Virus record (IMG/VR): IMGVR_UViG_3300023202_000336
Location: 64,001 to 128,000 of that record
Length of the DNA stretch: 64,000 nucleotides
Source: a virus
Direction: 5' to 3' (one strand)
Shown here: positions 42,551 through 56,075 of the stretch, one piece after another
Layout: each line of letters begins with the position of its first letter
How positions within the stretch are numbered: position 1 is the first letter of the stretch
Notes under the pieces: generated by a model
Databases searched by the model: none
What the model was told of the DNA's origin: nothing
What the model saw: only the letters and a program-made list of their open reading frames with translations
Position numbers and translations under genes: made by a program

Positions 42551-42856
42551 GTGGATCGAGGTAATACCTGGCCTGAGCAGGAGGTCATCGAGGCCTGGGC
42601 TCAGCGTCATGGAATCAAGGCGTCGAATAAACAGCTCATGGAGCTCAAAGAAGAAATGACGAAGCTCTCGTGCAGTTTCGATAAAGCGCGACTTGTATTT
42701 CTCGCGGGCGAAGTATTCGATCAGATAGGTGACGTAGATGTACATGAGCAAGCATTTTTATACGCGAGCGCTTTCGGCCGCGAAGAACCGAACGATGACG
42801 ATTACTGTGCTGCGGTACGGGACGCAATCGATCACGGTATGGAACTCGATCTATGA
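42551..42856 (+). CDS. Hypothetical protein
   Basis: GTG start after AGGAAG. Confidence 0.55.
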   Translation: MDRGNTWPEQEVIEAWAQRHGIKASNKQLMELKEEMTKLSCSFDKARLVFLAGEVFDQIGDVDVHEQAFLYASAFGREEPNDDDYCAAVRDAIDHGMELDL

Positions 42857-42880
42857 GGCGAATGTCTTCTATGTTACGAT

Positions 42881-43096
42881 ATGAAAGCAACTATCGAATA
42901 CGAGTTGCCGGATGACGAAAAAGCACTTATCGTGGCATCTTGTATTAACAAAATACTAGGAGGAGCATCTGAAGCTCACGAACAGCTTCGTATGCTTCTC
43001 AAGCACGAAGAAGATATATCGGAAAAGATTCGCGAGAAGATAGTGGACATAATAAAAAACCTCTATGAGGATACGCAAATAATAGATCTCGTTTAA
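42881..43096 (+). CDS. Small hypothetical protein
   Basis: MKATIEYELPDD start. Confidence 0.55.
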   Translation: MKATIEYELPDDEKALIVASCINKILGGASEAHEQLRMLLKHEEDISEKIREKIVDIIKNLYEDTQIIDLV

Positions 43097-43108
43097 TAAG
43101 GAGAAGAA

Positions 43109-43627
43109 ATGAGCAAAGTAAAAGCGGTAACGTTTGTTATCGTAGTTGCTGCAGTAACGTTTCTCGTTGTCGAGGGTGTCCTTCCGGTGCTGGTTGCAGC
43201 TTTCGAAGCCGGAGCACAGGACGAACAGAGGTCGTCAACAGCGATAGAAAAGGCAGAGGAACTGCCGAGGACGGTGAAGGTCGAAGCGGTCGCTACGGGC
43301 TACTGTCCGTGCGAGAAGTGCTGCGGTCGATTCGCCGATGGAATAACGGCGAATGGAAGGTCGGTTGAGATGCATCCGTATGGGATTGCCGCTGATCCTT
43401 TGGTATTGCCGTACGGGGCGAAGATCGATGTCCCCGGGTACGGTCGTGCCGAGGTCGACGATACCGGAGCGGCGATGAGTAATTCTGAGGTCCCTCACGT
43501 CGATCTCAGGTTCAAGACACACGACGAGGCTCTCGAGTGGGGTCGACGAGATGTCATCTTAGAGGTCTCGACGGTCAATCTCGTGAGGGACCAGATCGAG
43601 TCCCTCCTCGCCCATACGCTTCGGTAG
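43109..43627 (+). CDS. 3D-domain (MltA-like) cell-wall-associated protein with N-terminal TM/signal segment
   Basis: ATGYCPCEKCC, GITANG, IAADP..LPYG, DTGAAM and HVDLRF motifs. Confidence 0.85.
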   Translation: MSKVKAVTFVIVVAAVTFLVVEGVLPVLVAAFEAGAQDEQRSSTAIEKAEELPRTVKVEAVATGYCPCEKCCGRFADGITANGRSVEMHPYGIAADPLVLPYGAKIDVPGYGRAEVDDTGAAMSNSEVPHVDLRFKTHDEALEWGRRDVILEVSTVNLVRDQIESLLAHTLR

Positions 43628-43667
43628 CTCAGCGGAAGAGTAAGTCTACTACGTGTGTTGCGTAGTG

Positions 43668-43712
43668 CGAGGGTCGGCCGGTGATTTCTGGATGTTCGGT
43701 CGGCCCTCGTTT
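43668..43712 (+). terminator. Terminator-like hairpin overlapping the first bases of the repeat-like leader
   Basis: CGAGGGTCGGCCG / CGGTCGGCCCTCG then TTT. Confidence 0.55.
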
Positions 43713-43799
43713 ATGCTCGCTCAGGAGCTTTGTATCTGAGACTCGGGCGAAATCCGTCGAGGCCCCGTATCTGAGACGCATCTGATATCGGAGCCTCGT
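43707..43799 (+). CRISPR. Degenerate mini-array in the cas12 leader: one full variant repeat, a 17-nt spacer, a 3'-half repeat and a loop fragment
   Basis: TCGTTTATGCTCGCTCAGGAGCTTTGTATCTGAGAC (43707-43742); AGGCCCCGTATCTGAGAC (43760-43777); GAGCCTCGT near 43791. Confidence 0.75.
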
Positions 43800-43824
43800 C
43801 CCACCAACCGCTAAGGAGAACGAG

Positions 43825-45549
43825 ATGCAAAGAGGACGCGATCCAGCGAATATTTACAGCTTCGCTGCATACGTATACCGCGAGGATTACGAGCGGACCG
43901 GCGATATACTGTTCAATGCGAACCGGTTCGGAAACGCGCTTGTCGCGATCGAACTCCACCGTCGCGAAGAGTGCGAGAAAATACTTCGACAGTGCTCGAA
44001 GGATTACACGGACGCGCGCGCCAAGGAAGACGCGCTCGTCGACCACCTTCAAGCGATCGGCAAGGAGCTGGGTCGATATCGCCAAAAGAAGCGTGAAAAG
44101 AAGACGCCGAAGGAGCTCCGTGAAAAGTACACGGAGGTCGAAGGGCAACTCGAGAAGCATCGAAACAGCGTGGTGCTTCCGATCCGCCGGGAGCTCTACA
44201 GGAGCCCCAAAGTCAAGAAGCTCCTGAAGAAGCTACATGAGAAGGTAACCGCGGATAAAAAAGAAGCGCGGGCCAACAGGAACTGTTACTGGGGGACGGG
44301 TGGTCTCGTGGAGAAGGCCCACGAGAATGACGGAGAAGGGCCGCCTCCGTCATTCAAGCGATTCGACGGAACCGGTCGAATCGGTGTGCAGCTCCAACAG
44401 CAGTCAGGAGCTCCTCCGTGGACCCCGGAGCGGCTCACGAGAGAGAACACTCTCCTGATGCTCGATGTGGACCAGATGCCCGATGATTTCGTCGGCGCCG
44501 ATCTGAACACAAGGTACAAGAAAAGTCAGAAGAAACGCTGTCCGGTCCGTATGAGGATCGGTTCGGAGAAAGCCAAGCCGGTGTGGCTCGACTTCATGGT
44601 CAAGTTCCATCGACCGCTTCCAGAAGGCTGCAAGATCAAAGCAGCCTGGATCCTTTTCAAAAAGGTCGGGACGCATACGAAAACGTATTTTCAAACGCAA
44701 GTGGCGCGTCCCGAGGGGTTCATGAGAGACGACGTCGCCGATGGCGGCCATGTCGCGGTCGATCTTGGCTGGAGAAAGTTCGAGGACGACCGGGTCCGCG
44801 TCGCCTACTGGCTCGGAGATGATGGAGAACAGGGTGAGATCGCTCTCGATCCGGAGCTCCTGAGCCGAGACCGGAAGAACCGGTCACTCCAGTCGATCTA
44901 CGATCGACAGTTCGACTCCATGAAGGAGCTCCTCCATGGCTGGATCACCGAGCACAAGAGTTCGGTTCCGGAGTGGCTGAAGGAGGAGACGAAGACCCTG
45001 CCGATCTGGAGATCGAGGTCCCGCTTGGCAAAGGTCATCATCAAGTGGAGGAAACACCAGTTCGACGGCGACGTCGAACTGTATAAAACCGCCGAAAAGT
45101 GGCGGAAGAAGGACAAGCACCTCTTCGACTGGCACAAGTTCCAGGCGAGGATCATCAGGGAAAAGCGGAAGGCGCTTTTCCGAGAGGAAGCGGCAAAGCT
45201 CGCGAGGCGTTATCGCTGCGTCATATTCGAAGATATGAAGATCAGCGATATGGCCAAGGACTCACCGGTGAGCAGCGATGACATGGATCCAATCAAGGAT
45301 ATCATGAAACTCGCGTCGCCAGGGGAGCTTCGAATGGAGTTCGAGAGTCGATTCCGAGACTCCACCAGACAGAAGACGAAGAACACGACGAGAGAATGTT
45401 CGGAGTGCGGTTTCGTTGACGGAGAGTTCGACTTCGTGAATCTGTACCACGAATGCCCGAACTGTCAGGCGGAGAAGGATCAAGATCTCAACGCCTGCGA
45501 GAACCTCCTCGCACGAGAGTTGGGGCCACCAGACGCTTCGGCCGCTTGA
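43825..45549 (+). CDS. cas12m: Type V CRISPR effector, Cas12m (V-U1)-like, 574 aa
   Basis: RFDGTGRIGVQLQQQSGAPPWTP, CYWGT and V(R)MRIG..W matching the remembered Cas12m pattern; RuvC-I VAVDLGWR (D313), RuvC-II IFED (E469), CSEC/CPNC zinc finger, DQDLNA (D554); adjacent array. Confidence 0.8.
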   Translation: MQRGRDPANIYSFAAYVYREDYERTGDILFNANRFGNALVAIELHRREECEKILRQCSKDYTDARAKEDALVDHLQAIGKELGRYRQKKREKKTPKELREKYTEVEGQLEKHRNSVVLPIRRELYRSPKVKKLLKKLHEKVTADKKEARANRNCYWGTGGLVEKAHENDGEGPPPSFKRFDGTGRIGVQLQQQSGAPPWTPERLTRENTLLMLDVDQMPDDFVGADLNTRYKKSQKKRCPVRMRIGSEKAKPVWLDFMVKFHRPLPEGCKIKAAWILFKKVGTHTKTYFQTQVARPEGFMRDDVADGGHVAVDLGWRKFEDDRVRVAYWLGDDGEQGEIALDPELLSRDRKNRSLQSIYDRQFDSMKELLHGWITEHKSSVPEWLKEETKTLPIWRSRSRLAKVIIKWRKHQFDGDVELYKTAEKWRKKDKHLFDWHKFQARIIREKRKALFREEAAKLARRYRCVIFEDMKISDMAKDSPVSSDDMDPIKDIMKLASPGELRMEFESRFRDSTRQKTKNTTRECSECGFVDGEFDFVNLYHECPNCQAEKDQDLNACENLLARELGPPDASAA

Positions 45550-45556
45550 GAATGTT

Positions 45557-45606
45557 TTCGAGCGGCTACGTCGTCGATAAGATGACGTAGTCGCTCGAAG
45601 TCTTTT
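45557..45606 (+). terminator. Terminator between effector and array leader
   Basis: 19-bp stem with G-U pairs, GATAA loop, then GTCTTTT. Confidence 0.75.
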
Positions 45607-45645
45607 ATGCGATATTGTTTATATATAAAAATTTTGACAGTACTG
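45607..45645 (+). promoter_or_regulatory. AT-rich CRISPR leader/promoter
   Basis: GATATTGTTTATATATAAAAATTTTGACAG in a GC-rich context. Confidence 0.65.
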
Positions 45646-46229
45646 TTAGATATGCCCGCTCAGAGGCTTCGTATCTGAGACGAGGCGCGTGATCTCGAAC
45701 TCCTGGAGTATCCGCGTCGCTTATGCCCGCTCAGAGGCTTCGTATCTGAGACTGGGGCCTGCCAAACCACGCCCGCTTATGCCCGCTCAGAGGCTTCGTA
45801 TCTGAGACAGCGCTAGGTGAAGGCTGGCGGGGATGCCACGACCGTTTATGCCCGCTCAGAGGCTTCGTATCTGAGACGGATCGTTTTGGTGGTATCCCGC
45901 TTATGCCCGCTCAGAGGCTTCGTATCTGAGACGCCAATCCATCCAGGTACCCGCTGATGCCCGCTCAGAGGCTTCGTATCTGAGACTAGGCGCGTGATCT
46001 CGAACTCCTGGAGTATCCGCGCCGCTTATGCCCGCTCAGAGGCTTCGTATCTGAGACCCGCCTCGAGCACCCGTTTCGGGGGCGTTGATATCCCGCTTAT
46101 GCCCGCTCAGAGGCTTCGTATCTGAGACGACCACGCCTGCCGTCTCCGCGAACTCGGCTTCGCCCGCTGATGCCCGCTCAGAGGCTTCGTATCTGAGACG
46201 CCAATCCATCAAAGCCTCGTACCTGAGAC
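45646..46229 (+). CRISPR. CRISPR array: 9 repeats of 36 nt (CCGCTTATGCCCGCTCAGAGGCTTCGTATCTGAGAC) plus a terminal half-repeat; spacers 35,20,33,19,18,35,35,35,(11) nt
   Basis: Parsed by hand; CTCAGA/TCTGAG hairpin near the 3' end followed by AC, as in Cas12m-type repeats. Confidence 0.95.
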
Positions 46230-46248
46230 ACCAACCAAGGAGAAAACC

Positions 46249-46809
46249 ATGCGTTTAGTCTGTGTTCTACTTTTCGTGTTCGGCCTCTGTGCCGAAGAAA
46301 CCTCCAAACTCCCCAGCACCGCCCAGCGTCTCGTCGATCGCCACGATCACGCGCTGGCCGAACTGCGTGAGCGATACCTCGCCGACGTCGCCGACTTGCG
46401 CGAAGACGTCACCCACGACCTCGAGCGGGAACTCAAGAAGACGACCCGTCGCGGCGACCTGGAAGGGGCCCTCGCGATCAAGGAGAAGATCACCGCGCTC
46501 AAGGAGCAAGAGGAGGCGATCGCTGAAGCGCCGACCGATTTCCTCGGACGTAAGAGGCAACCTGAATTCGTCGGAAACACCTACCGATACAGCTCATGGT
46601 GGGTTCGCTTTGATAAGGACGGGTCGGTGAAGACAAACTGGACTTCCCGCGACCTGAGAGACGGTGAATGGAGGATGGAAGGCGAAGAGATCGTCCTCGA
46701 ATTCAACGGGGAAGAGCACGTGAACCGCGCCTTCATCAACGAGGATGGAGATCTGGATTTTAACGGGGCGCAGCTGTTCCGCCTCGAGGAGAAGGACGAG
46801 GACGAATGA
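46249..46809 (+). CDS. Secreted-type protein, paralog A1 (signal peptide, coiled coil, variable C-terminus)
   Basis: SD AAGGAG; hydrophobic N-terminus; KKTTRRGDLEGALAIKEKI. Confidence 0.75.
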   Translation: MRLVCVLLFVFGLCAEETSKLPSTAQRLVDRHDHALAELRERYLADVADLREDVTHDLERELKKTTRRGDLEGALAIKEKITALKEQEEAIAEAPTDFLGRKRQPEFVGNTYRYSSWWVRFDKDGSVKTNWTSRDLRDGEWRMEGEEIVLEFNGEEHVNRAFINEDGDLDFNGAQLFRLEEKDEDE

Positions 46810-47496
46810 TCCTGATCCTGGATCAGTCGCCAGGAAAGGCGGCGAAGGCATACGCAGACAACGACCTCGTGGAGGAAGAACCGTGCGAATTCTGATGGCT
46901 ACGCTATTCTTGTTGCCGACCCTCTCCCTGTCCTCCGAGGAGGAGCAGGACCCGATGCCCGCGTCTGCCAAACGGACCGTGGCCCAGCACGATCGCGAGG
47001 TGCAGCGCCTCAAAGAACGCTACCTGTCCGACCTCGCCGAAATCCGCGAAGACACCCTTCGCGACCTCGAGCGTGACATGGAAAAGACGACCCGTCGCGG
47101 CGACCTCGAAGGGGCCCTTGCGATCAAGGAGAAGATCACTGCGCTCGAGGAGCAAGAAGAAGAGATCGCTGAGGCACCGACGGATTTCCTCGGGAACGCG
47201 AAGAAGCCGTTTTTTGCTGGTAGAACTTTTAACCATGTGCGCGGTGGTGGTTACCATATCGCATTTTCGGAGGATGGAACGTTGACGACGACGAACTGGG
47301 GCCACAGGTACAACGTCGGCGAATGGACCTTTGAGGACGGAACTATCCACATGGTTTTCGAGAACGGCGGTAACCCACATGAAGCAGAGGTAGATCCAGA
47401 AAACCAGAGGCTCACCTTCATGAACGGTGACGTTTACGTGATCTCGGAAGACAAATGATCCTGATCCTGGATCAGTCGCCAGGAAAGGCGGCGAAG
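46805..47496. repeat. Perfect 43-bp direct repeat (46805-46847 and 47454-47496), equal to the start of gene 47455
   Basis: AATGATCCTGATCCTGGATCAGTCGCCAGGAAAGGCGGCGAAG seen twice. Confidence 0.95.
46883..47458 (+). CDS. Secreted-type protein, paralog A2
   Basis: GTG start after GGAGG; near-identical coiled-coil block to A1, divergent C-terminus. Confidence 0.75.
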   Translation: MRILMATLFLLPTLSLSSEEEQDPMPASAKRTVAQHDREVQRLKERYLSDLAEIREDTLRDLERDMEKTTRRGDLEGALAIKEKITALEEQEEEIAEAPTDFLGNAKKPFFAGRTFNHVRGGGYHIAFSEDGTLTTTNWGHRYNVGEWTFEDGTIHMVFENGGNPHEAEVDPENQRLTFMNGDVYVISEDK

Positions 47497-48012
47497 TGCT
47501 ACGCGGATAGAGATATTTCGAGAGGAGTAAATGACGTTATAGAAGTTCTCGAAAACGTGTACCTTCGCCGCCTTCGGCGCGATTATGATGACTCGTCTCC
47601 ATTCGTATCGTGGTGCGGTCTTACGTATCGTAACTTCATGTGGCTTTATTGGCTCGGTTGGTTTCTCGGCATCGAGTACTTCGTGTTAAAAGATAAAGAT
47701 CATAAAAATTCTCTGAAGCTAGATAGCATCAGAACGGAATACGAAAAGCTATCGAAAGGGATGAAGAGACCGCTTCCTCTTTCGTCGTGGCCTCAATCAC
47801 CGTTACCAGCAAAGTTTCGTATGCCGCTCTCAGAGTCGGATCTTCATCCAGCTTCAAAAGGTGACGCGCATCCAGCCGTGTTCGCCTACAGAAACTACTA
47901 CCAGACGTTTCCGGATCGCGAGTGGAGACGTCGAGAAAAACCGTTGTGGTGGGATCCGGCAAGTGCTGAAGATCCCGACGATTTCACCGAGACGATCATG
48001 GCGGTCGTCTAA
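47455..48012 (+). CDS. Divergent pyrimidine-dimer DNA glycosylase-like family protein
   Basis: MILILDQSP..AA..Y.D, PF..W....NF.WL and AYRNYY resemble the phage family starting MNIF.LD. Confidence 0.5.
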   Translation: MILILDQSPGKAAKCYADRDISRGVNDVIEVLENVYLRRLRRDYDDSSPFVSWCGLTYRNFMWLYWLGWFLGIEYFVLKDKDHKNSLKLDSIRTEYEKLSKGMKRPLPLSSWPQSPLPAKFRMPLSESDLHPASKGDAHPAVFAYRNYYQTFPDREWRRREKPLWWDPASAEDPDDFTETIMAVV

Positions 48013-48641: not shown

Positions 48642-48677
48642 TTGATTATGCCCGCTTAGGAGTTGCGTATCTGAGAC
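48642..48677 (+). repeat. Solitary CRISPR-repeat variant
   Basis: TTGATTATGCCCGCTTAGGAGTTGCGTATCTGAGAC, same 36-nt register as the array repeat. Confidence 0.85.
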
Positions 48678-48690
48678 AAAGCAACCAACA

Positions 48691-48718
48691 GCGACCCACT
48701 GGGTCGTTTTTCTTTTTT
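48691..48718 (+). terminator. Terminator 13 nt downstream of the solitary repeat
   Basis: GCGACCC-ACT-GGGTCGT then TTTTCTTTTTT. Confidence 0.8.
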
Positions 48719-54932: not shown

Positions 54933-55404
54933 CGTCAGAGACGAGAAAACACTTAAGGAGGAGGTAGAAGCTCACGAGCGACTGCTTCGGTGCAAAAAGG
55001 TCGAGGTTCGAGACGTCGTAAGACTCGTGAACACAGTGCAGCCGAACGCTCAGTTCAGGGATCATCAAGATATCCCGGGAGTCTGCGTGATAGCGAGGGT
55101 GCAGCGTCGGCATCATACCGAGACAGTCGTTATGTCCGAACCTCCAGAGAGTGGACCGCTCATCAGGGCCCGTCTACAAGACGTGCTCGATAAAGTCGAG
55201 AGGATGGAGAACGTTTATACGAATCATCTTCTTTATGAAGAGCTTCACCCTTTTACCGACGGGAACGGTCGTTCAGGACGGGCGGTATGGCTATGGCAGA
55301 TGTTGCGTACTGATATACCGTGGGGTTATCGATTCGAGCTACCGTTCCTGCAGAAGTGGTACTATGACTCGTTCTCTATGCTCGCTCAGGAGCCTCGTAT
55401 CTGA
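54859..55404 (+). CDS. fic: Fic-domain protein (AMPylase motif intact)
   Basis: HPFTDGNGRSGR; ESNTVEG; SD AAGGAG. Confidence 0.9.
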   Translation: MTKPLPLDVTKLRDFVIESNTVEGIVRDEKTLKEEVEAHERLLRCKKVEVRDVVRLVNTVQPNAQFRDHQDIPGVCVIARVQRRHHTETVVMSEPPESGPLIRARLQDVLDKVERMENVYTNHLLYEELHPFTDGNGRSGRAVWLWQMLRTDIPWGYRFELPFLQKWYYDSFSMLAQEPRI

Positions 55405-55407
55405 GAC
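55372..55407 (+). repeat. Solitary CRISPR-repeat variant forming the last codons and stop of fic
   Basis: TTCTCTATGCTCGCTCAGGAGCCTCGTATCTGAGAC. Confidence 0.85.
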
Positions 55408-55909: not shown

Positions 55910-55988
55910 ATCGAGTCGAGCTACCGTTCCTGCAGAAGTGGTACTATGACCCGTTCACTATGCTCGCTCAGGAGCTCCGTATCTGAGA
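55910..55988 (+). repeat. 79-bp near-identical copy of the fic 3' end (55328-55406), containing solitary repeat variant 55954-55989
   Basis: ATCGA.TCGAGCTACCGTTCCTGCAGAAGTGGTACTATGAC.CGTTC.CTATGCTCGCTCAGGAGC..CGTATCTGAGA in both places. Confidence 0.92.
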
Positions 55989-56075
55989 TAAAAAAAACTA
56001 GTGAATCAGAAAATAGATGATATAGGGTATAATAAAACGAAGGTAGGCGTATTTCTGTAATAAAGGGGGGACGTC

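Follow-up and report, generated by a model that had tools for sequence, protein, structure and literature searches.

Why should a phage gene for a CRISPR effector carry pieces of a CRISPR array in its own 5′ leader? The question is raised by a stretch of 64,000 nucleotides (nt), hereafter the window, that covers bases 64001-128000 of a complete 180,134-bp phage record (IMG/VR IMGVR_UViG_3300023202_000336), the ends of which overlap by 127 bp so that the phage genome is effectively circular. Here the effector gene cas12m is preceded by a full-length variant repeat (psiR1), a short pseudo-spacer and a half repeat (psiR2), and is followed by a CRISPR array with a similar ending. An earlier note on this DNA had proposed that the effector binds or cuts the leader of its own messenger RNA (mRNA) and releases an extra short guide. 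Our own answer is tentative and, in our estimate, falls a little short of an even chance: Cas12m may bind and cut the psiR1 handle not only in its own mRNA but also in other phage mRNAs. Positions below are those of the window unless they are given as genome positions. The leader and gene are composed as follows.

43710..43742, + strand: psiR1, a full-length variant repeat that ends in GAC (nhmmer E 2.2e-11).
43743..43758/9, + strand: pseudo-spacer of 16-17 nt, the owner of G43759 being ambiguous (sequence reading).
43759..43777, + strand: psiR2, a 3′ half repeat consisting of loop, 3′ arm and AC (nhmmer E 0.044 alone).
43778-43789, + strand: degenerate copy of the repeat 11-mer, 12 nt (sequence reading).
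43790-43799, + strand: repeat-loop fragment of 10 nt, with the same sequence as the loop of the 55375 solitary copy.
43802-43809, + strand: CACCAACC, a module common to the leader and the array tail.
43813-43820, + strand: Shine-Dalgarno sequence AAGGAGAA, followed by the cas12m ATG at 43825.
43825..45549, + strand: cas12m, 574 amino acids (matches to PDB 23vw and 8hhl; Pfam TNB).

The array that follows, and its tail, are laid out in parallel fashion.

45649..46199, + strand: main CRISPR array of nine full repeats and eight spacers, beginning 100 nt after cas12m.
46167-46199, + strand: last full array repeat, followed by 11 nt.
46200-46210, + strand: 11-nt remnant, a copy of the start of spacer 5 (alignment).
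46211-46229, + strand: array-tail half repeat (sequence reading).
46229-46236, + strand: array-tail CACCAACC (sequence reading).
46237-46244, + strand: array-tail Shine-Dalgarno sequence AAGGAGAA, followed by the ATG of gene 46249 (sequence reading).

Every part of the leader that the earlier note had listed is present. psiR1 shows 5 differences in 33 positions when set against the array repeat, and psiR2 is identical to the 3′ half of the array repeat at 17 of 19, with the 11-mer GTATCTGAGAC preserved exactly. Matches to the 11-mer core with at most one mismatch number 18 in the window, against 1.1 expected, and thus the repeat units of the leader are not a product of chance. The note had also held that the main array ends in the same way, and the likeness proves stronger than it had seen: in a MAFFT alignment, the 3′ part of the pseudo-spacer together with psiR2 is identical to the array's 11 nt and half repeat at 23 of 29 positions, and CACCAACC occurs only three times on the + strand of the 180-kb genome, two of these being in the leader and the array tail. 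Given this identity and the shared module, the leader derives, as judged by alignment, from a duplication of the terminal unit of the array and of the downstream gene's ribosome-binding module, and has since diverged. It holds approximately 28 nt of extra repeat debris, inserted ahead of CACCAACC, and the segment 43778-43799 is missing from the array tail.

By homology, the effector of this phage is a Cas12m. It matches the Cas12m structure PDB 23vw over residues 43-563 (E 6e-47) and Cas12m2 (8hhl; E 1e-24), while Pfam finds only a TNB domain. Homology to characterized Cas12m enzymes and an adjacent array with a scaffold repeat (stem, pseudoknot and a 3′ GAC) together place the locus in type V-M; no Cas1 was found in the phage. 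Cas12m enzymes cut their own precursor CRISPR RNA (pre-crRNA) upstream of the scaffold (PMC11013384, PMC10442227), in agreement with the earlier note, and in MsCas12m this is a Mg-dependent cut within the repeat (PMC11013384). The scaffold of Cas12m2 comprises 36 nt with a stem and a pseudoknot, and its heteroduplex extends over only 17 bp (PMC10442227); GoCas12m reads 18 bp next to a protospacer-adjacent motif (PAM) of TTN (PMC11013384). Binding of DNA with no cutting has been shown for other Cas12m enzymes (PMC11013384, PMC10442227).

Whether psiR1 could serve as a handle for such an enzyme depends on two helices, counted on an alignment of repeat copies.

43715-43717 with 43726-43728, + strand: psiR1 stem I.
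43720-43725 with 43735-43740, + strand: psiR1 stem II.

The alignment is free of gaps and takes in 48 distinct copies, drawn from metagenome contigs as well as from this phage. Across it, stem and pseudoknot are paired in 94.2% of cases, and changes on both sides of a pair number 19, compared with 6.4 +/- 2.0 in shuffled alignments, none of 500 of which reached as high a value; the relatedness of the copies inflates these figures, and control pairings slid along the same alignment, which retain that relatedness, are paired at 17% to 50%. G-U pairs are kept as well, with 18 of them at a single stem pair. psiR1 retains both helices and every scaffold feature that covaries over the 48 copies. It belongs to the class of the solitary copies, in which one pair of stem I/pseudoknot is changed from C-G to U-A with compensation on both sides, and departs from the consensus of that class at 2 of 32 positions. 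The pseudo-spacer and psiR2 carry 6 changes in 29 positions plus an indel relative to their array-tail paralogue; by these counts psiR1 appears better preserved than the segment behind it, a difference that is not statistically significant given the few sites. psiR2 is without the 5′ arm and the pseudoknot strand, and so can be neither a handle nor a cutting site for Cas12m.

That the repeat is a genuine Cas12m scaffold follows from the near-identical repeat that adjoins a bacterial cas12m. In Schlesneria sp. T3-172, whose cas12m is 28% identical to that of the phage and up to 43% identical to other relatives, an array of seven repeats lies beside the gene at about 1.2503-1.2507 Mb, and its best-matching repeat has 30 of 31 aligned bases in common with that of the phage array; no copies of this repeat occur beyond that array in the 7.2-Mb chromosome. 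Other cas12m loci have the conserved loop and the GAC end in common, and their stems are different but mutually compensated. The 5′ halves of the Schlesneria repeats are heterogeneous, and the locus may be a pointer to a planctomycete host.

The earlier note had treated the leader unit as special to the effector, and this does not stand. A search of the whole phage with a repeat profile (nhmmer) gives 32 matches at E <= 0.002, all on the + strand, of which nine make up the array and 23 lie outside it; the top match on the minus strand reaches only E 0.17, and the core 11-mer occurs 37 times on the + strand and once on the other. Because the leader unit is one of 23, any mechanism would have to be regulon-wide rather than specific to cas12m. 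The outside units are confined to two accessory regions of the genome, one at 107.7-120 kb with four units (psiR1 and the window copies at 48645, 55375 and 55957) and one at 159.6-180.1 kb plus 0-4.2 kb with 19. They stand at gene boundaries: half lie within the roughly 9% of the genome that is non-coding by crude gene calls, and others overlap the final codons of the upstream gene. By a crude start rule, a + strand start codon follows within 60 nt for about 13 units and within 150 nt for about 19, and the genes behind them include AAA ATPases, a MazG-like pyrophosphatase, a kinase-like ATPase, a TnpB fragment and unknowns. The units have no promoter-like motif in common upstream. A hairpin precedes 6 of 18 full units, and one of these hairpins is a clear terminator. 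The three solitary copies in the window are these.

48645..48708, + strand: solitary repeat, 12 nt, then an intrinsic terminator at 48690-48708 (sequence reading).
55375..55407, + strand: solitary repeat of the psiR1 class (profile and alignment).
55957..55989, + strand: solitary repeat of the psiR1 class (profile and alignment).

Does the pseudo-spacer have a target in DNA? Against 42800-44000 on both strands, the pseudo-spacer finds at best 12 of 20 matching positions with a PAM-side seed of at most 4 nt, and genome-wide at best 14 of 17 with neither a seed nor a T-rich flank, in a seed scan made without a fixed promoter or PAM for this enzyme, so that a very short match is possible. Sequences of 18 nt taken after the repeats have no self-target with three or fewer mismatches besides repeat-to-repeat matches, and the array spacers match phage and plasmid collections only at chance level (E 0.6). 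The extra short guide that the earlier note envisaged is therefore doubtful: psiR2 is without the parts for a 3′ cut, the pseudo-spacer is a diverged array remnant, and no target in the phage is detectable.

The region ahead of cas12m is also unlike that ahead of the array, which is preceded by two recognizable elements.

45556..45600, + strand: intrinsic terminator with a 20-pair stem and then a T run, 3′ of cas12m.
45601-45648, + strand: AT-rich array leader, 80% A+T, just 5′ of the first repeat.

A sigma-70 scan finds no promoter-like site ahead of cas12m, there is no terminator-like site between the upstream gene and cas12m, and A+T content upstream of psiR1 is 33%, compared with the 80% of the array leader. 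Since no promoter- or terminator-like site intervenes, cas12m is probably co-transcribed with the upstream genes.

With the anatomy of the leader, the conservation of the scaffold, the distribution of the family and the lack of a DNA target as observed, the mechanism we favor would run as follows. psiR1 would have been kept as a working RNA handle for Cas12m while the units behind it decayed. Cas12m would recognize psiR1 in the transcript of the upstream genes, cleave immediately 5′ of the scaffold, in the way that pre-crRNA is cleaved, and remain attached to the 5′ end so created on its own mRNA. This action would be repeated at some 20 other phage leaders with a handle, and at the array tail, where the array transcript enters gene 46249. 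Cas12m would then process or bind RNA across the phage, its own message among the targets, and its output would depend on how much Cas12m is free and on how CRISPR RNAs (crRNAs) and the other handles compete for it. Within this scheme, it is plausible that Cas12m binds the leader of its own gene and cuts it on the 5′ side, in light of the Cas12m identity of the effector, the known cutting of pre-crRNA, the intact scaffold of psiR1 and the lack of a promoter or terminator before cas12m. Feedback on cas12m expression, the sign of the effect included, we infer from these steps; the autoregulation that the earlier note proposed leaves no regulatory effect that can be read from the sequence, and the fold of the leader has a z score of -1.0.

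Several observations weigh against this scheme. With that z score for the full leader, and 0.24 for the leader without psiR1, the leader fold is no more stable than that of shuffled sequences; the fold of the array tail has a z score of 0.74. At 71 nt behind psiR1, the cas12m ribosome-binding site falls beyond any guide-channel footprint, and among family members the spacing between the last repeat unit and the start codon varies from 14 to 141 nt, a spread that no single translational-operator geometry suits. In addition, the leader unit does not appear to be a conserved feature of the cas12m family, as none of seven other loci, mostly on phage-like contigs, has a repeat-like unit before cas12m (L010, L011, L014, L016, L017, L018 and L020; 28-34% identical), four of them (L016, L017, L018 and L020) having been scanned with a generic loop motif only, as their own repeat is not known.

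The last of these points comes from related phages that have the units and, as far as can be seen, not the effector. A metagenome scan with the repeat core gave 16 contigs, among them three distant relatives of this phage (L114, L116 and L120) with a terminase 34% identical and a syntenic Mre11/Rad50 (SbcCD) operon. In the interval from their terminase gene to this operon lie seven repeat-like units, in the place occupied here by the 55375 and 55957 units.

L116:7498-8662 / L120:4893-6057: seven repeat-like units in a distant relative, with CTGCAG and CGCAG stem types compensated on both arms.

No cas12m is present in the seen parts of L108, L109, L112, L114, L116 and L120-L122, which for the related phage contigs with units amounts to about 30 kb, and the units may therefore work without a phage-encoded Cas12m. 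Their occurrence in distant relatives indicates that the dispersed family is older than this phage; the cas12m leader unit itself is without comparative support. Short contigs from the same scan (L104 and others) have repeat-gene-repeat layouts. On one 52-kb contig (L109:4700-7850) six successive arrays of the same repeat family have spacers of about 14-22 nt; four of the array ends seen share the same following sequence of about 25 nt, and there is no cas12m in the 14 kb seen.

Sampling of the leader itself adds little. An identical leader is found in a contig of a second sample, whose Cas12m protein is 99% identical, and in contigs from four DNA sequencing runs of one study, with no difference reported in those runs across the leader or most of cas12m; one low-depth X3 contig deviates at three cas12m positions. 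This identity between samples shows only a clonal population. Viral contigs, scanned for peptides of Cas12m and of the neighboring gene and for the exact repeat, yielded no close phage relatives, and the neighboring gene, with a 3D domain, matched only unrelated phages of about 40 kb.

The explanation that survives best beside the one we favor is that the leader is an evolutionary scar. Recombination between repeats would have put cas12m behind a copy of the array end. The leader units would then be remnants in decay that regulate nothing, and psiR1 would owe its intact look only to youth or to homogenization with other copies by gene conversion. This accounts well for the alignment of 23 of 29 positions with the array tail and for the CACCAACC and Shine-Dalgarno module in common, as it does for the clear decay of psiR2 and the loop fragment, for distant cas12m loci that have no leader unit and for a gap in preservation between psiR1 and the rest that is not statistically significant; array ends are, moreover, commonly degenerate. 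We nevertheless consider it unlikely, because the 23 outside units are co-oriented, stand at gene boundaries and have their scaffold kept by compensated changes, and because units at a syntenic place in phages with a terminase only 34% identical argue for selection on the family. The leader is also identical across the second sample and the four runs, though the population is clonal.

Two further explanations are, in our view, about equally improbable. The first holds that the units act as decoys or hijacking RNAs of the Racr type or of a viral crlRNA-like type, in which handles on abundant transcripts soak up or redirect a host Cas12m with the same repeat. A bacterial type V-M array with an almost identical repeat exists, solitary repeat units of viruses are known to act as RNA anti-CRISPRs (PMC10651486), and the related phage contigs have units with no cas12m in view. 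However, this phage encodes the matching effector together with a nine-repeat array, so that decoys would titrate its own enzyme. The leader unit, unlike Racr genes, has neither a promoter nor a terminator of its own, and the region upstream of it is G+C-rich; the unit at 48645 differs from it in having a terminator. Mimicry of a host repeat could be seen in the near-identity to the Schlesneria array, but no spacer link accompanies it in either direction: phage spacers match the Schlesneria chromosome at E 0.57 or worse, and Schlesneria spacers have no match in the phage.

The second sees in the units cis elements that are independent of Cas12m, such as promoters or start sites of a phage RNA polymerase, hairpins for RNA stability, or recombination cassettes that shuffle accessory genes. 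In its favor are a conserved YTATG at the 5′ edge of the unit, the hairpin before 6 of the 18 full units, the repeat-gene-repeat layouts in another metagenome and the two accessory-region clusters, one of them across the record ends, which is the usual layout of early promoters in phages with a virion polymerase. Yet the units share homology with the CRISPR repeats found at the cas12m loci of a bacterium and of unrelated elements, and they keep RNA-type pairing including G-U, which elements acting at the level of DNA would not preserve.

More improbable again is a role of the leaders as guides, whereby the 17 nt after each handle would direct Cas12m to silence related co-infecting phages whose leaders have no handle. 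Cas12m does need only 17 bp, and the phage's own DNA would be protected, since the 3′ end of the repeat is GAC and not the T-rich PAM known for GoCas12m; but queries of viral contigs with Cas12m, the neighboring gene and the repeat return no related phage with a matching leader, and the guide of the cas12m leader would be the pseudo-spacer, for which there is no match in the phage or in phage or plasmid collections. The least probable is a mini-CRISPR of the CreR/crlRNA type, the RNA of which would guide Cas12m to a partly matching, PAM-flanked site in the promoter of cas12m and so stop transcription. The architecture does match that of CreR beside the Cas12a of Moraxella bovoculi (10.1101/2023.03.10.532045), Cas12m is a natural transcription blocker that needs only 17 bp, and the pseudo-spacer has a length of 16-17 nt; but the pseudo-spacer has no promoter match, locally or genome-wide, and is a diverged copy of an array remnant.

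A number of observations touch on the units and their surroundings without deciding among these explanations. In the leader, the loop and 3′ arm of psiR1 at 43728-43737 can pair over 10 bp, one of them G-U, with 43823-43832, covering the AUG. This duplex, found post hoc from the minimum free energy fold, is the longest among 181 start regions and is reached in 13 of 3,000 shuffles. It hinges on T43731, a base unique to this copy, as an array-type repeat would pair over only 6 bp. If the pairing is real, folding of the handle or binding of Cas12m would free the start codon.

The array has spacers of 35, 20, 33, 19, 18, 35, 35 and 35 nt in order; spacer 6 is the same as spacer 1 apart from its first base, and two spacers are duplicated wholly or in part. 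No terminator separates the array from gene 46249, and with no 3′ terminator the four genes up to 48627 may share the array promoter as a pre-crRNA-mRNA fusion. Tandem paralogues lie behind the array, at 46369-46547 versus 47015-47193 (179 nt, 83% identity) and at 46798-46858 versus 47447-47507 (61 nt, 90% identity). The 48645 unit with its terminator stands just 5′ of the ribosome-binding site of gene 48734, where it could be a self-contained small RNA or an attenuator that ends an operon started at the array.

Elsewhere in the genome, seven or eight units run straight into a tandem copy of the final 11 nt of the repeat, mostly with one G-to-A change (among them the units at genome positions 161618, 164395, 165142, 168836, 172930 and 179589). 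Read as a guide, the tandem at 172930 has 15 of 16 positions in common with the place where array repeat 1 meets spacer 1, and TTC lies on the PAM side. We set aside an apparent covariation of guide and target among rare 11-mers (CTAAGAC three times, GTACC twice), which shared ancestry explains equally well. At genome 161556-162109, a full repeat, a partial repeat and the 11-mer precede a 140-amino-acid C-terminal fragment of TnpB (Pfam TNB, E 3e-21) that is not close to the phage's Cas12m, and a separate, full-length TnpB-like frame of 392 amino acids lies near genome 144400. At genome 165760-165882 there is a second mini-array, in which a half repeat and then two full repeats are separated by spacers of 22 and 19 nt, in that order; a long T-rich tract comes after it.

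A wider form of the favored mechanism would take the tandem copies into account. In it, the effector has been turned into a regulator of phage expression, and about two dozen handles in mRNA leaders form a post-transcriptional regulon; some units, namely those with a tandem 11-mer, may in addition encode guides against repeat DNA with the TTC of the loop as PAM, so that Cas12m would also occupy the DNA of each unit, the two sites immediately ahead of cas12m among them. We regard this wider form as doubtful.

How do these units compare with repeat-derived elements that have already been described? CreR of Moraxella bovoculi Cas12a has a good psiR1, a decayed psiR2 and a pseudo-spacer that partly matches a PAM-flanked site in the cas12a promoter (10.1101/2023.03.10.532045). 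As in that system, a degenerate mini-CRISPR with its handle kept lies just upstream of a type V effector gene, and a feedback that senses crRNA load has been proposed. In contrast, CreR is a separate small-RNA gene, whereas the unit described here lies in a presumed 5′ untranslated region, belongs to type V-M, is borne by a phage, is one of 23 and has no promoter match on the PAM side of the pseudo-spacer. This match being what defines CreR, we do not file the leader unit under that name.

In 34-56% of V-A loci, cas12a has standalone repeat units of unknown function as its neighbors (Shmakov et al., 10.1101/2023.03.03.530964). They too are solitary repeats upstream of a type V effector gene and have no recognizable targeting pattern. 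However, the V-A units are only weakly repeat-like and are conserved within cas12a clades, whereas the phage unit has a near-perfect scaffold, was not seen at the same place in seven other cas12m loci and belongs to a family dispersed through the genome. Another parallel is tracr-L, which, as described in the same source (10.1101/2023.03.03.530964), autoregulates Cas9 through an 11-bp match to cas promoter DNA. In that account a repeat-derived RNA at a cas locus likewise lets the effector control its own expression, and here a promoter match is missing. Racrs (PMC10651486) resemble the phage units in being single CRISPR repeats in a virus genome, but they are small RNAs that stand alone and imitate a system of the host for which the phage has no genes, whereas here the matching effector is encoded and the unit lies inside the leader of a gene.

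The locus also takes its place among canonical type V-M systems (MmCas12m, GoCas12m, MsCas12m, Cas12m2 and that of Schlesneria), with which it has in common the effector family, the scaffold and an array downstream; the phage has no Cas1. Where the Schlesneria locus has repeats in its array only, the phage adds the leader unit, short spacers of 18-20 nt, duplicated spacers and 23 units outside the array. The myxophage MV-1 has been reported to encode a Cas12m beside an array, likewise lacking adaptation genes, with no mention of leader or dispersed units (10.64898/2026.09.14.751636). Among the loci we compared there is no unit upstream of cas12m in one that may be of this kind, and none is dispersed in the 13 kb seen. 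The locus in question encodes the protein P0009 (610 amino acids, the same length; loci L011/L012, phage-like), which we take to be of the MV-1 type.

To our knowledge, feedback on cas genes by repeat-derived RNAs occurs in types I, II and V-A and always acts through a guide that matches promoter DNA. Cas autoregulation by repeat-derived RNAs, solitary repeats beside type V effector genes and, as of a 2026 preprint, phage-borne Cas12m are already known. What is new at this locus is the position in cis in the effector's own leader, the type V-M context, the lack of a DNA target and the dispersed family of co-oriented units. If the mechanism we favor is true, a CRISPR effector would act as a sequence-specific RNA-processing or RNA-binding regulator of a set of viral genes. 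This would be a new natural use of class 2 effectors, and it would offer a ready-made design for post-transcriptional circuits based on Cas12m.

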